From positions 640,001 through 704,000 of the forward strand of contig CAWCKH010000003.1 in assembly GCA_963796055.1 (NCBI GenBank): 64,000 bases of DNA, read 5' to 3'. The DNA is from an uncultured delta proteobacterium (GTDB taxonomy: Bacteria; Myxococcota; Myxococcia; Myxococcales; Myxococcaceae). Of this stretch, positions 33,001 through 39,000 are shown in pieces. The position numbers are program-made. The stretch's first letter is position 1. Every line of letters begins with the position of its first letter.

Positions 33001-36000
33001 TACTTGAGGTAGCGCTCGCAGGCGTCGATCAGGACTTTCCGCTGCGGGGCGAAGGGCACCACCGTCTTGAGGTCGGTCCCGCTGGGCGGCTTCAGCTCGC
33101 CCTTCTGCTCGGCGCGGCGCACCACCTCGTCACCGGCGTAGACCGCGTTGAACGCCGCGTTGGGTAGCCACTTGCCCGGCTTCTGCTTGCCGTCGATGGC
33201 CTTGCCATCCTGCGTGACCACCCAGGTGTACTGCTGCTCGGCCTCGGGGTACTTCCGGAGGTAATCATTGAGAAGCTCGCCCCAGTAGAAGTGCAGGTCG
33301 TAGGACTTCTTGTTGTCGGGGAAGAGCGTCAGGTAGTCGGCGTAGACCTCGTTGGCGTACTCGAAGGTGTCGTCGTCCCGGGTCTTCCGCCCCTCGATGT
33401 GCCAGTTGACGGCGATGTTGGAGAGGGTGCGCTCGGACAGGTCCTTGGCCGAGGCCATGGCCTTCTTGTCCGCATCGGTCTTGACGTTGCCCGACTTCTC
33501 GACGTCGCCGATGACCTTCACCAGCTTGCGGATCTGGGCCACCGTCTGCTTCTTGTCGCCGGCGCGGAGCACGCAGTCGACGATGCGGCTCTGCCAGCCC
33601 GGCGTCTTGGCGATGAGTGGCTTCTCCTTGATCAGGAAGCTGTAGGCCAGCGCCGCATCGCGGTCCTTGCCCGCGTCGTAGTAGAGGCTGGCCAGCAGCT
33701 CCATCATCCCGAAGCGATCGTCCGGGTTGCTGGCCACGGTGCTGAAGTTCTCCTTCGCCTGCTGTGGGAGCAACCCGGCGCGCTCGTAGGCCCGGACGTA
33801 GTCGTTTCGCGCCTCGCGGATCAGGGTGGCCTTGCCCTTGGCGCCACCCTGCTTCTCCAGCGCCGAGGCGCCGGTGAACTCGCCGTAGAGGACGGTGGCC
33901 TTGAAGAGGTCCATCGCCCGCGGGTAGTCGGTGAGGTTGAAATGGCACCACCCCTGCTTGTAGAGCGCGAATCCGTAGATCGAGCTCTCGGGGTAGTTGG
34001 CCGCCGACTTGTACGCCTCCAGCGCCTTGAGCAGCCAGTCACGGCGGCCCTTGCTGTTGTTGAAGTAGTACTCGCCGAAGGCCAGGTAGGCGTCGGGCAC
34101 GAAGCGCGACTTGGGGTAGTCCTTGACCAGCTTGCCGTAGGCGATGAGGGCCTTCTTCTCCTCGTTGAGGTCCATCAGGTTGTGGGCCAGGAAGAAGAGC
34201 ACCTCGTCGGTGCGCGGGTAGTCGCGGTACTTCTGGACGATCTGGGTGTACTGGTTGACCGCCAGCTTGGCGTTGGCGTCGCGCTGGACCATCAGCGTCG
34301 CCTTCTCCTTCTTGGCCTTCTCTTGAAGGGCGACGTCCTTGGTCGCCAGCCCGCGGATGAGATCGTCGTCCTTGCGGTTCGCCTGGAAGAAGTAGTCGCG
34401 CGATTCCTCGAAGTAGAGCTCGCCGAGGCGGAAGAGGAGGTCCGGGGTCTCCTTCGAGTCGCCGGACAGCTCGATGATCCGCTGGAGCGAGTCGATCTGG
34501 CTCCGGCGCTTGTCCGAGATCTGCCGCTCCACGCCGAGCTGGAAATGGTCGTACTCGAGCGGGGCGCCGCCGGTGTCCTCCTTCTTCCGCGTGATGTCGC
34601 CGGCGAGCGACGAGTCCAGCGTCGTCTGCTCCTTCTTTCCGAGCGTTTGCTCCTTCGGTGCGCGGGCCGTGTCGGCCGCATGCGCGAACATGGGAACCGT
34701 CAGGAGAAGAACGAGGGAGCGTCGCATGTGGATGTGGACTCCGGACCCGTGTACCCAGGCGCCTTGGCCGGTGTTCGTACGAGCGGGCAAGCCATTGATC
34801 GTCTTGGGAATTTCTTCGGAGTTGCAGCGGCATCATCCTCAACCTCCTGACGGGAGGTCAACCGGGCCCACCCCTCGACCGGCCGCCTGCTCAGGTGGAG
34901 GTGTGGAATGAGTCTTCTTCCGCCCACCTCGACCTTCGCCGAGCGTGTGGAAGTGCTCTTCGCCGTGGTGCGAGGGCGCGGGCTGGCGCTCGGCGCCCTG
35001 GACCGGGAGCTGCTCGGGCGGTGGTCGGAGTCTGGAGTCCCGCTGGAGGTGGTCGCACGTGGGCTACTTCGCGCGGCCGAGCGGGCGCGGTGGAACGGCC
35101 CGGTGGGCGCCGCCCCGCGCTCGCTCCGTGCCTGCCGTCCGGAAGTGGAGGAGGAAATCGAGGCGTGGAAGCTCCGCAGCGTGGGCGCCGGCAGCAGCCG
35201 AAAGGGCGACGGTGTCTGAAACCGGTGGGTTTCCTGTGGACGTCATGTGCGCGACCGGCGATCATCCTGGGGATCGCGGGTCCGCGCGCGCCGGCATCAT
35301 TCGGCCGCGGACGATTCCGCTCGCAGCGTCGATCGCGCGCACGATCGATCGCGCGAGCCCGGAACGCATGTCCACCTTGCGCGTGCAGCGCCCGGAGATG
35401 GTACACGACGCGGTTCCTCGGTCCCGAGCGCTGCGCGGCATGACGCCACGCACCTGGGGACGTCGCGACTGAGGCCACACGACGACATGGAAGCCCTTGC
35501 CACCACCTCCAGCTGCCCCGAGTGCCGGGGTGACGGCTACCGGGTCGAGGCCGAGGTCCAGCCCGGCCCAGGCGACGGCGAGGGACGACGCGCACGGGCG
35601 GTGGCCCGGGTGTGCATCTGCCGCGAGCGCTGCCCGCACTGCGAGGGGCGCGGCTTCGTCTACACCGCGCGCCAGGTCGAGTTCAGCAGGAAGGTCGGTC
35701 CGAGGACCTACGAGGCGCTGGTTCCGTGCGTGTGCCGGCTCCTGGCGCAGCGGGTGGCCAACTTCGCCCAGGTGGGCATCCCCGCCCACCACGCGACCAG
35801 CAGCTTCACCACCTTCCGCGCCAAGGGGGACGACCAGGAGAAGACCGCCGCGCTGGAGCAGGCGCTCGGCGTCGCCCGCGCCGTGGCGCAGGAGTGGCGG
35901 CGCGATCGGCCGGCGCGTGGCTTCGTCCTCTCCGGCCGGGTGGGCTCGGGGAAGACGCATCTGCTCTCGGCCACCTTGCGGCATCTGGTGCTGGAGCGCG

Positions 36001-39000
36001 GCGCCTCGGCGCAGTACCGGGAGATTTCCCTGCTCTTCGCCGACATCCGCCGCGGGTTCAACGCCGGGAAGAGTGGCGGGGAGATCATCGCCCGGCTGGT
36101 GGACGCCGACGTGCTGGCCATCGACGAGCTCGGCCGCGGGCGGGGCAGCCCCTTCGAGATGGAGACGCTCGACGAGCTGATCGCCCGCCGCTACAACTCC
36201 GGGCTCACCACCATCGTCGCCACCAACTTCTCGCTCGAGCGCGAGCGGCCGCCGTCCACGGGGCCCCGGGGCTTTCAGGCGCCGGCGCAGGCCCTGGAGG
36301 AACGTGAGGAGCTGCTGGTGGAGCGGATCGGCGAGCGCATCTACAGCCGGCTCTGCGAGATGTGCGACTTCGTCTCGCTTCCGGCCCGCACCGACGACTT
36401 CCGGCGCACCAAGCAGGACGGACGCCCCACGCGGCGGCTGGTGCGCCCGGCGTCGTAGTGCGGAGGCCCCGCCGCAGCCTTCACTCGGGCCGGGCCGTCG
36501 TCCGAGCGCTGCGCGTCGCAGCCTGGGCCGCCGTCCCCAGCCTGCTGGGGGGATGGGCGGTCGGGGAACCAGACCTGTGTGTCATCTCCCGCCACTCCGG
36601 AGAGATCCTCGCCGGAGACGATTTCGAGCTGCTCGACTCGATTCCACGCCGCGCGCTGCAGCTCGCCGAGTCCGTTCGCGTCGCGGCAGAGGCGGGAAGA
36701 GGCGCGTGGCAGGTGGGAGGCGGCTACGAGGTCCAACTGGAGCGCGATCGCATCGTGGTGCGCGCTGGCCACGCCCGGGAGCTGCCTGCCACCACCCGCG
36801 GGGATGATCCGGTCGAGGTCCAGGTATTCGGGCTGGTCGGGTCGGAGCGGGTGAACGTCCTCTGCCGCGGGCGCGCTGTCCGGGTCAGCTCCAGCGAGAC
36901 CGAGGACCTCCCTCCGGGGTGGCAGTCGCTCCGGAGCGTGCTCGGCAGGGGCGCCATCCTGTGCACCTCCGGGCCGTGGCTGGTCCGGGTGGCGGGGAGC
37001 AAACCGCGTCCGTACGCAGGCGTCCTTTCCTTCCGTCCGTTGCCCGACCGGCCCCCGGAGCCTGGGAGCACCCGGCGAGAGGCGCGGGCCCGGCGGGGCT
37101 CGGAGGTCATCTTCCGCACGACGCTCTCCGCGTACGTCGCGGGCGTCCTGGCGGCGGAGCAGGCGGGGCTGACCGGCGAGGCGGCGATCGCGCTGGCGCA
37201 GGTCATCGCCCACGATGCCCGCGTCGAGCGCCATCCCGGGCGGCCTCTGTGTGACACCACCCATTGCCAGGTGTTCCTCGGGACGGCGCCGGCGACCGCC
37301 GCAGTGACCGAAGCGCTCGCCTTGTCCGAGCTGCCCACGACGCGGTGGCTCCCCTACTTCCAGGGTGGGGACGAGCCGTGGGAGACCCGGCGCCCGGCGG
37401 CGGACGTGCGGGCATTGCTGGGCGAGGCGAAGCGCTTCGGCGGAGACGGACGCACCCTCGAGGTGACGAGGCTCGGTGGCGTCGAGCGTGTTCCCTGTGA
37501 GCCGGTCCGGGCCGCGCTGCGCCTGCCGAGCTGTCCCACCGACGGCCGCTTCGACGGCGAGAGCGTCCGGATACGCGGACGCGGGCGCGGACACGGTCTA
37601 GGGCTCGACGTGGAGGCCGCGCGGAGGTCGGGGCTGAGCGCGGCCGAGCTGCTCCGACGCGCCTACGGGCTCCCGTAGTCCGAGAAGGTCCCAGTTCGAG
37701 GCGAGCGGCACCTGAGCGTGGAACGAGCTCACCGGCCCGCATTTCTTGGCGGCGTGGCGGCCAGGCAGCCGCTAAGTCGCCACGTCATGAGCCACCCCAC
37801 TCGCGGGTTTCACGTTCGCCAGGCCCGTCCGGAGGAACTCGCCGCACTCGGCCGGCTCGTCGCGGACAGCTATGCCGCGCTCCCGGGGATGCCGGGACCC
37901 GAAGAGCAAACGGCGTACTACGCAATGGTGCGTGACGCGGCAGCGCGCGCGCGCAACCCGGCCATCCGCATCCTCGCCGCGGTCACGCTCGACGGCGAGT
38001 TGCTCGGAAGCGCCGACCTGATCGAGGACATGGCCCACTACGGCTCGGGAGGGACGGCCAGCATGCGGGTCGATGCGGCAGGCATCCGCCTGCTCGCAGT
38101 CGCGCCCGCGGCGCGCGGTCGCGGCGTCGGCAAAGCGCTCACGCGCCACTGCATCGAGCACGCTCAAGCCCTGGGCAGGTCCAGCGTCGTCCTGCACACC
38201 ACCCGGGCGATGGAGACAGCGTGGGGGCTGTACGAGCAACTCGGGTTCCAGCGCGCCCCGGACCTCGACTTCCGGCAGGGAGCCCTGGAGGTCTTCGGGT
38301 TCGAGCTCAAGCTCCCGGCCCGAGCGACGGCCCTGCGATAGGTTCTAGCGGGTCACCCGGTGGAGCTCGCGGGCGAGCCCCCCCACCTGTGGCCCGTCCA
38401 CCACGAAGGTCAGCTGGAGCGGGGAGCCGTGCAGCGCGCAGACCTCCACGCCGAGCGCGGCCGCCGTCCCGAGACACCCGGCCAGCAGCGCGCTGTCGGT
38501 CCCCACTCCCGGGCCGGCCAGGGTGACCGTCCCCAGCCCCGGCCGCGGCTCGGCCCCGAGCGCCCGGGCGCGCGCGTCGAAGGCCTGGACCCCGTGAACG
38601 TCCTGCAGCGGCACCACCAGGAGGAGCCGCCCTGCCCCGCCCCGCGTCCCGGCCACCAGACGCAGGCGAATCTCGTGCTCGGCCAAGCTCCGGAGCACGG
38701 CCTCGAGCTGCGCCTCCGGGACCTCGAGCACCCGTACCTCGGTGTCGCTGGCCACGGCGCGCACCGGGGCCGGGTCCGGGCCGATGCGCGATCCGGTGCC
38801 CTCGCCATGGGTGCTGCGAGCGTCGATGACGATGCCGGCGCTGCGGGCGAACTCCACCGCCTGGGCGTTGAGCACCCGGGCGCCCGCCGCAGCGAGCTCC
38901 TGCATCGTCCCGTAGTCCAGGGTCTGCATCTTCCGCGCCTCGGGCACCACCCGGGGATCGGCCGAGAACACCCCGTCCACGTCGGAGTAGATCTCGCACG

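Follow-up and report, generated by a model that had tools for sequence, protein, structure and literature searches.

The stretch of DNA that we analyzed (the window) comprises 64,000 nucleotides, positions 640,001 to 704,000 of the forward strand of contig CAWCKH010000003.1 from an uncultured member of the Myxococcaceae (assembly GCA_963796055.1), and feature coordinates are given as window positions. It carries a gene for a DnaC/DnaI-type ATPase preceded by a gene for a small protein, which we call its partner; dciA lies on a different contig.

34908-35219, plus strand: partner gene, an open reading frame of 103 amino acids
35220-35486, plus strand: intergenic stretch of 267 bp between the partner and ATPase genes
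35360-35375, plus strand: degenerate SOS-box-like site, matching 9 of 12 positions of CTGAAC-N4-GTTCAG
35377-35382 (TTGCGC) and 35399-35407 (TG-G-TACACG), plus strand: candidate internal promoter of the ATPase gene, conserved in three loci of the genus and recognized by eye only
35487-36458, plus strand: DnaC/DnaI-type AAA+ ATPase gene, an open reading frame of 323 amino acids
C1:120878-121174, on a contig other than that of the window: dciA, over the PF05258 cutoff

Rereading the open reading frames placed both genes on the plus strand, at the place given in the preliminary description, which had put the partner just upstream of the ATPase gene. The partner is indeed upstream, but 267 bp separate the two genes and the partner is a short form: in this genus it lacks the helical C-terminal domain of about 110 amino acids present in most relatives, which are about 200 to 240 amino acids long. 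The gap does not appear to be a frameshifted remnant of that domain, as a profile of C-terminal halves gave a best E value of 0.13, on the wrong strand. The ATPase starts at the ATG at 35487; an identical 323-amino-acid protein is present in a public collection, and members of its public cluster carry the name "DNA replication protein DnaC." Clustering of loci identified aspartokinase, ABC transporter, kinase, uppS, and rpoZ genes as neighbors that recur across families, with the partner upstream throughout. The nearness of rpoZ described before needs correction: rpoZ is absent from the window and was within 6 kb in 3 of the 38 loci clustered. No transposase was seen among the recurring neighbors of the ATPase gene, and none of dnaB, dnaA, and priA was adjacent to it in the loci examined. 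Its composition is host-like (G+C, 0.72 versus 0.71 for the genome; GC3, 0.94).

The ATPase begins with two tandem Zn ribbons (C10/C13/C43/C45 and C49/C52/C81/C83), followed by a linker helix (residues 82 to 94), Walker A (GRVGSGKT, residues 150 to 157), and Walker B (D213-E214). The Zn ribbon, the Walker motifs, and the GERIYSRL sequence noted previously are all present and conserved in our alignment, in which K156, D213, E214, and R288, as well as D304/R306, are invariant. R288 occupies what we take to be the box VII arginine position, and this arginine and both Walker motifs sit in an AAA+ fold of the initiator clade. In the predicted model (pLDDT 90.0), the first helix begins at residue 82, after the two Zn ribbons, and the DnaC-type N-terminal helix, which enters the LH-DH pocket of the helicase, is absent. 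An added helix ahead of the ATPase was found in the alignment only in the family labeled f3, which is without dciA; by eye this helix is similar to the wedge of DciA, but an HH probability of 2% speaks against its derivation from it. By sequence, the closest solved relatives are 3ecc (E value, 2.1e-13) and 6qel (3.6e-11), and the PHROG family of DnaC-like helicase loaders matches at 3.4e-41. A Foldseek search with the model ranked Aquifex and Escherichia coli DnaC in positions 1 to 4 (TM 0.84 to 3ecc over the target), with IstB, DnaA, and Hda closely behind. The NCBIfam values were reproduced (PRK08116, 2.9e-23; DnaC, 1.1e-12; DnaI, 3.5e-9), each below its curated cutoff (NF005931 DnaC, 48.1 versus 357 bits; NF006505 DnaI, 36.4 versus 228 bits), and an Aquifex-labeled DnaC likewise falls below the latter two. 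We rejected the IS21 helper IstB as an identity because the gene is single copy, has no transposase among its recurring neighbors, and scores 48.9 against the 200 bits of the IstB model.

The partner is a four-helix domain (AlphaFold2 model, pLDDT 87.7) whose homologue in phage replication initiators is their C-terminal, DnaD/DnaB_2-like domain; it is without their winged-helix origin-binding part. In 17 of the 80 viral loci listed, a match to the partner profile lay directly upstream of a DnaC-like gene, and the partner matched the C-terminal domains of those phage initiators with an HH probability of 98% (63% for DnaB_2-type phage domains), which makes its phage-type origin firmer than had been claimed. 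PHROG 7498, "DnaD-like helicase loader," was matched by 22 of 33 partner members at an E value of ≤0.5 (best, 1.2e-4). Pfam DnaB_2 (DDBH2, PF07261) did not match the window partner and matched 4 of the 33 members (best E value, 0.042); in a structure search, unrelated AAA+ lid domains ranked above 2i5u (Z 5.8; rmsd 2.9; 67 aligned) and 2zc2 (Z 5.4), and Foldseek gave no viral match to the partner below an E value of 0.001. The YxxxIxxxW motif is absent from the window partner, which reads ACRPEVEEEIEAW, and distant relatives carry the variant YCxxAVExAW. MXAN_4871 of Myxococcus xanthus belongs to the same orthologue cluster. That the partner matches phage initiator C termini encoded just before DnaC-like genes indicates that, judging from sequence, the pair arose by domestication of a phage module consisting of an initiator C-terminal domain and a DnaC-like loader. 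A recent prophage or insertion sequence origin of the ATPase was rejected, given its single copy, its host-like composition, and identities of 23 to 38% to the 80 viral matches listed (best E value, 7e-19).

The observation that this pair is resident in Myxococcales and coexists with dciA is confirmed, and its scope is broader than first claimed. Among 121 genomes of the order, a strong match to the ATPase was found in 116, nearly always in one copy, and the partner was also found in 116. Families form clades in the ATPase tree, and vertical inheritance is borne out by congruence with the DnaB tree, our stand-in for the species tree: in 26 genomes, 11 of 13 well-supported ATPase splits were shared, with one conflict and a Mantel r of 0.81. 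Purifying selection acts on each of the three genes, with dN/dS values in seven genome pairs of 0.04 to 0.21 for the ATPase, 0.07 to 0.19 for the partner, and 0.16 to 0.36 for dciA. dciA exceeded the Pfam cutoff in 104 of the 121 genomes (42.6 versus 24 bits in the source genome), accompanied the ATPase in 100, and was present together with both genes of the pair in 98. It directly follows the ATPase gene in 28 of the 29 genomes of family f8 that have both, whereas in f3 (0 of 9 genomes) and f5 (0 of 4) it was not detected with Pfam and the ATPase is kept. A resident dna[CI] gene in the sense of Brezellec 2016 encodes an AAA+ protein, has a conserved chromosomal context outside mobile elements, is monophyletic and congruent with the species tree, and belongs to a genome without dciA. 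The ATPase gene shows the first three properties, with 35.7 bits against a PF01695 cutoff of 24.1, but not the last, as the source genome has dciA and so do 100 of the 116 carriers. The part of PMC5109545 that treats dna[CI] domestications lists seven, none in Deltaproteobacteria, and the pair is absent from that list, as had been stated.

The DciA of the source genome genuinely belongs to PF05258 and carries the wedge segment at its N terminus. DciA and AAA+ loaders are regarded in the field as mutually exclusive, and PMC13696075 explains this by their use of one DnaB pocket; the same study describes the N-terminal wedge helix as the main mechanical element of DciA. In terms of which genes are present, the pair does break the exclusion rule, as claimed; the DciA found beside it, however, is in most cases a minimal form, akin to the domain-only DciA loaders: the C-terminal lasso was lost in 18 of the 19 carriers outside f8 that we examined. 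The ATPase and the trimmed DciA may therefore be complementary rather than redundant. Trimming alongside the pair is a tendency and not a rule, because among other Myxococcota, 7 of 30 loci have short-tailed DciA without the pair, and a long-tailed form occurs beside the pair in 6 of 6 f8 loci and in 12 of 18 from Acidobacteriota. Just two genomes of the order lack both pair genes (G006 and G009), and these have full-length DciA. A hidden pair in other Myxococcota with short DciA was rejected, which argues against a strict link, as the partner profile gave no credible match in 36 genomes (one at an E value of 0.009) and ATPase matches were partial. An overlooked, divergent dciA in f3 and f5 was not supported either: a lineage-specific profile that recovered the gene in a control (G044, of family f4) found no match in 9 of the 13 genomes. 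Some of these metagenome-assembled genomes may be incomplete, but G022 is a single contig. No lambda-P-type loader was found in five f3/f5 genomes tested, and with both dciA and such a loader missing from the searches, another factor must load DnaB there.

The pair had been described as a Myxococcales trait, but the family is not confined to this order: it includes Bradymonadia-labeled proteins and extends to the phylum Acidobacteriota. A similar single-copy ATPase was found in 74 of 81 genomes of this phylum, mostly with the partner and dciA where checked. In the ATPase tree the Acidobacteriota proteins group with the DnaC of Aquificota, which has been published as a clade of resident loaders, and a single origin of these clades and the myxobacterial one was neither demonstrated nor rejected (p-AU 0.30 for Aquifex DnaC). 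At least one domestication, and perhaps a second, is added to the published list of seven.

Binding of the ATPase to DnaB is weakly suggested by a complex predicted for the f3 relative, the protein folded being this one with its extra helix and not the window ATPase. Combined with two f3 DnaB copies (linker helix plus C-terminal domain), it scored 0.50 against 0.01 for the best of three controls, on a scale whose mark 116 of 157 solved complexes attained, as did 2 of 215 mismatched pairs; only 18 of the 157 solved complexes, but both mismatches, did so with scores of ≤0.60. The runs share at least 73% of contacts, with a complex partner pLDDT of at least 74; the score may mirror likeness to solved DnaB-DnaC structures. 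The literature searched contained no essentiality or interaction data for the pair.

We see about an even chance that the pair loads DnaB and shares this work with a trimmed DciA. A phage initiator C-terminal adaptor and its DnaC-like AAA+ loader would have been captured as a module, fixed in the chromosome before the Myxococcales families split, and inherited alongside the host DnaB. We infer that the ATPase binds DnaB and helps to load it using ATP and single-stranded DNA, with the partner as a putative co-loader tying it to an initiation or restart platform, by analogy with DnaB/DnaD for DnaI and DnaT for DnaC. DciA, trimmed to the wedge helix and KH-like core in most carriers, would cooperate in loading; in f3 and f5, where dciA is gone, the pair is the only candidate loader found. 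Of the first interpretation, the claims that the pair is resident, vertically inherited, found together with dciA, and missing from the published list stand, while helicase loading is a proposal to which the f3 complex lends weak support. Doubt about a loader comes from the scores below cutoffs, the missing N-terminal helix, the closeness in fold of IstB, DnaA, and Hda, and the absence of dnaB, dnaA, and priA next to the gene in the loci examined. These points, together with housekeeping neighbors unrelated to replication, would suit another initiator-clade AAA+ protein that retained the phage adaptor, such as an Hda-like DnaA regulator or a remodeler of some other client. We consider this improbable, because the Hda model matches the ATPase at 4.1e-5, far more poorly than DnaC-type models, the entire module including the adaptor derives from phage initiator-loader pairs, families without dciA keep the ATPase, and the f3 complex, though weak, was predicted with DnaB.

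A restart-specific loader acting at PriA-marked forks, analogous to dnaT-dnaC and leaving the origin to DciA alone, seems rather unlikely to us, although several observations fit it. priA is present and priC was not found in the source genome, and the domesticated dopC with a DnaT-like C terminus is a published parallel. In 19 of 27 loci from the same family but other genera, an SOS-box-like site precedes the ATPase start by 56 to 60 bp (four are perfect palindromes), several relatives have one or two mismatches over 16 bases to the published M. xanthus consensus CTRHAMRYBYGTTCAGS, and a box of this kind also precedes lexA in five of five genomes. [quoted passage not shown] MXAN_RS23655 is, however, not derepressed in a lexA mutant (log2, 0.12; P = 1), the box was not found in other families, and in the window it is degenerate, with three mismatches to the consensus; it immediately precedes the candidate −35 hexamer, an arrangement also seen in relatives with a better box, and a consensus promoter scan did not call this promoter. 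In f3 and f5, where dciA was not found, the pair would moreover need to serve the origin as well. MXAN_4871 and MXAN_4872 are absent from the supplement of PMC12288472 (proteins with changes), and neither they nor Q1D2U3, Q1D2U4, or MXAN_RS23655 is named in the main text of the literature searched. Quite improbable is a full takeover of loading by the pair, with short DciA kept for another job (e.g., single-stranded DNA binding) or on its way out, in which case the published exclusion would hold in function. The widespread loss of the lasso, the loss of dciA in two families, its dN/dS, the highest of the three genes in six of seven pairs, and exclusion through the shared pocket would agree with this, but dciA is under purifying selection and kept in most carriers, short DciA retains the wedge helix, and nearly all f8 genomes with both genes encode it directly after the ATPase.

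A bolder reading, to our mind unlikely, is a split loader, in which the wedge of lasso-less DciA opens the DnaB ring and the wedge-less ATPase and adaptor provide tethering and ATP control. If so, an old and common three-part arrangement (Myxococcia, Bradymonadia, most Acidobacteriota) would be the missing intermediate between bacteria with DciA and those with DnaC/DnaI, and replacement would have run to completion in f3, where dciA was lost and the ATPase gained a helix, and in Aquificota. That the pair and dciA coexist stably under purifying selection across an order, and apparently across the phylum Acidobacteriota, implies a shared loading reaction or a division between initiation and restart, and the genes can be tested in the genetically tractable M. 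xanthus (MXAN_4871, the ATPase gene that follows it, and dciA). Families that keep, cluster, or lose dciA form a natural series for the replacement of an essential replication factor by phage genes. New here are the mostly lasso-less DciA beside the pair, an ATPase without the DnaC helix, and the gain of a helix in f3.

Aquifex aeolicus DnaC (3ECC/3EC2) is the best match to the ATPase in sequence and fold, and it too opens directly with a Zn ribbon, no N-terminal helix preceding it; it has one Zn ribbon rather than two, Aquificales lack dciA (9 of 9 rows), and a partner homologue was found in one of three Aquificota genomes tested. Bacillales-type prophage modules (PHROG 50 and 7498; PRK06921) share the gene order, the Zn ribbon and AAA+ build, and the partner domain, but their loaders have an N-terminal helix and their initiators a winged-helix origin-binding domain, both missing from the pair in the window; identity is 31% for the best viral ATPase match and at most 38% among the 80 listed. 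Like E. coli dnaT-dnaC, Bacillus dnaB-dnaI, and Clostridioides difficile CD3653-CD3654, the pair is a chromosomal, vertically inherited adaptor gene immediately upstream of a DnaC-type ATPase gene. Unlike the adaptors of those systems, the window partner is one DnaB_2-like domain, without DDBH1 and YxxxIxxxW, and unlike E. coli DnaC the ATPase has no N-terminal helix. A further difference from those systems is that dciA is kept here. DopCE and VdhL, too, were reported in genomes without dciA, whereas the phage-derived pair and dciA have stayed together while an order and, apparently, a phylum radiated.

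The coexistence of the pair with dciA is real, old, under selection and broad. Both genes lie where the preliminary description had placed them, and both exact proteins are present in a public collection:

34908-35219 (+), partner open reading frame, 103 aa
35487-36458 (+), ATPase gene, starting at its ATG

In our alignment the ATPase has two Zn ribbons in tandem, its Walker motifs are intact, and the arginine within IYSRL is invariant. The protein passes the cut-off of Pfam PF01695 and hits the PHROG family of DnaC-like helicase loaders at 3.4e-41, its relatives carry the IMG name "DNA replication protein DnaC", and, as claimed, it stays below the cut-off of every NCBIfam model. 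By sequence, the solved structures closest to it are the DnaC proteins of Aquifex (E 2.1e-13) and E. coli (3.6e-11), and fold comparison with a predicted model (pLDDT 90) pointed to the same two. The same genome does hold dciA, on contig C1 and above its Pfam cut-off, together with a single DnaB and priA; a search of this genome for priC found none. Adjoining the partner is a divergent run of TPR, FHA and TonB-like genes (27420-34790, minus strand), resembling the myxobacterial gliding-motility cluster; families other than f1 do not have this run linked to the pair. Directly 3' of the ATPase lies a SpoIID/LytB-like gene with weak matches (36362-37678, plus strand) that is not kept in the other families examined.

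Residency of the ATPase across Myxococcales holds on a larger sample, with a strong match in 116 of 121 genomes of the order; G038 has a weak match only, and G006, G009, G107 and G109 have none. The partner profile also matches 116 of the 121, G038, G107 and G109 among them, and both genes are absent only from G006 (f6) and G009 (f9). dciA is above cut-off in 104 of these genomes, accompanied by the ATPase in 100 and by both pair genes in 98. Its reported absence from f3 and f5 was confirmed (0/9 and 0/4 genomes above cut-off), and a lineage-specific profile that recovered dciA in G044 found nothing in five f3 and four f5 genomes. The gene order described for f8, with dciA directly 3' of the ATPase, recurs in 28 of 29 genomes. 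Outside the order, strong ATPase matches were limited to G214 and G123 in a sample of 151 genomes of the phylum. Three Myxococcota genomes (G127, G129 and G144; f17 and f19; 92-95% complete), in which neither dciA nor the pair was found, are candidates for another loader. Near-identical locus copies on two contigs of one genome (L070 and L071; G045:C3 and C4) and a partial second copy in another (G102:C125) are more likely to reflect strain mixture or assembly duplication than true paralogues.

That the pair is chromosomal and vertically inherited, as had been proposed, is supported by its surroundings, composition and phylogeny. The neighbors recurring across families are aspartokinase, an ABC transporter, a protein kinase, uppS and rpoZ, with no transposase or phage gene among them, and the G+C content is in line with that of the genome. 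Trees of the ATPase and DnaB from 26 genomes have 15 of 23 splits in common, including 11 of 13 ATPase splits with good support; the single conflict lies within f1, and the Mantel r is 0.81. The best 80 viral relatives listed for the ATPase are all distant. Over seven genome pairs, dN/dS ranged from 0.04 to 0.21 in the ATPase, from 0.07 to 0.19 in the partner domain and from 0.16 to 0.36 in dciA; the last range rules out that dciA is a decaying pseudogene.

Confinement of the family to Myxococcales was not borne out. Proteins labelled Bradymonadia belong to it, and Acidobacteriota and Aquificota loci were among the matches listed by a GTDB pattern scan. An even sample of 81 genomes from the phylum of G236 (Acidobacteriaceae label), counting in the unpublished G324 and G348, gave an ATPase match at E<=1e-25 in 74, single copy in 73 of those 74. 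Among 35 Acidobacteriota-labelled genomes selected for their ATPase (unpublished G235 counted in), 34 have the partner, unlinked, 29 have dciA and 28 have all three. In ATPase trees built without Bacillus DnaI, locus L232 and redundant viral rows, the myxobacterial clade has support 95, and Acidobacteriota and Aquificota together form a clade supported at 95 in one tree and at 83-87 in others; a single origin of the two clades is neither established nor rejected (p-AU 0.30). L195 (G257), labelled "uncultured Clostridia" and sampled within the phylum of G236, groups with Acidobacteriota. Across the Acidobacteriota loci (L235-L264; L183, L190, L193-L195, L201, L204, L208), the partner often has a gene for a type III pantothenate kinase or an RNA methyltransferase as its neighbor, and the ATPase comes after either a run of dnaK/dnaJ, a MerR-type regulator and a sigma factor or biotin carboxylase genes. 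A Hydrogenothermaceae genome, an Aquificota genome without dciA, has a partner homologue at G269:C90:419-673 (genome of L212; E 1.4e-12), and the published resident dnaC of Aquificae may have an unrecognized adaptor. The N-terminal cysteines form four CxxC in Bradymonadia-type members (P0059, P0063, P0067, P0071 and similar proteins), two CxxC and two CxC in Myxococcales, and a single ribbon in Acidobacteriota and Aquificota.

PMC13696075 reports that DciA opens DnaB through an N-terminal wedge helix, that this helix and the N-terminal helix of DnaC use one and the same DnaB pocket, and that the C-terminal lasso of DciA raises efficiency. Outside f8, DciA ends at most 10 residues past its core in 18 of 19 carriers of the pair, and in 8 more examined later, and retains its N-terminal helix; outside f3, the ATPase begins at its Zn ribbons, without a DnaC-type N-terminal helix. 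The two genomes of the order without the pair have DciA tails of 55-57 aa, and other Myxococcota have long tails (38-95 aa) in 21 of 30 loci. Families f16, f18, f24, f25 and f28 have a short DciA and lack the pair. Against a strict rule stand a short DciA in 7 of 30 pair-less Myxococcota loci, the retained tail in f8 (6/6) and in 12 of 18 Acidobacteriota loci, and f5 (L049-L052), where dciA, an ATPase N-terminal helix and a lambda-P homologue were all sought and not found. One f5 ATPase (L051) has a long C-terminal extension, reaching 413 aa. Only in f3, which lacks dciA, does an amphipathic extension precede the Zn ribbons; it does not resemble the DciA wedge significantly. A complex of the f3 ATPase with two copies of f3 DnaB was predicted with weak support (0.50; best control, 0.01). 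In calibration, passes as low as this came from 18 of the 157 true complexes and from both of the false pairs that passed among 215; at least 73% of contacts agree between runs, partner pLDDT is at least 74, and likeness to the solved DnaB-DnaC complex may contribute to the score. We consider it very probable that the ATPase loads DnaB in some form, and give even chances to a loading job shared between the pair and DciA as the general reading.

A role of the pair in replication restart was considered in light of its regulation. Of 27 loci of the same family outside the genus, which are close kin, 19 have an SOS-box-like site:

56-60 bp 5' of the ATPase start (L008, L010-L017, L019-L021, L023-L029), LexA-box-like palindrome, directly before a conserved candidate internal promoter of the ATPase

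The palindrome is a perfect CTGAAC-N4-GTTCAG in L015, L017, L020 and L025, lexA has this box in front of it in 5 of 5 genomes, the window genome included, and the box agrees with the consensus in the accessible part of PMC9705874. The window's own copy is degenerate. In the available Table S1 of that paper, MXAN_RS23655 ("DNA replication protein"), which we infer to be the M. xanthus ATPase, is mildly UV-induced and is not derepressed in a lexA mutant. A restart role may therefore be entertained; the regulation data permit it without preferring it.

Within the literature searched, which was partly available, the claim that the pair is unlisted as a domestication stood. The accessible Supplementary Data 1 of PMC5109545 has entries for Q1D2U3, whose accession adjoins that of the partner (MXAN_4871/Q1D2U4), and for Q2IFJ7, which belongs to the ATPase cluster, and in both cases dciA is entered in the row as well; the pair's genes were therefore inside those data and, in the parts available, not described as resident. 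Some Vibrionaceae hold both dciA and dnaC, the latter not called resident in the available text of PMC11087808. The accessible portions of the Blaine preprint, PMC5509034 and PMC13501899 do not mention myxobacteria, and searches on DciA/DnaC in Myxococcus and Acidobacteria and on locus tags, with most subscription papers outside their scope, yielded no account of the pair.

The partner (2577 clusters at 50% identity) is about 200-240 aa in most relatives, and only its first domain is present in the window's genus, G011, G214 and G123. The 267-bp gap between partner and ATPase was rejected as a remnant of the second domain. In f5 (L049-L052) the partner stop overlaps the ATPase start. Some f3 partners are fused to the ATPase, suggesting that the two proteins work together; these natural fusions are single reading frames, helical where the two parts meet (L043:5976-7286 in G028; P0240, P0252). 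Direct evidence that the partner belongs to the DnaD family is weak. The pair is a phage initiator-loader module that has lost the winged helix for origin binding, a pattern it shares with dnaT-dnaC, dnaB-dnaI and CD3653-CD3654. A domesticated phage adaptor with its AAA+ loader is of a known kind, and what is unusual here is the stable retention of dciA, mostly trimmed.
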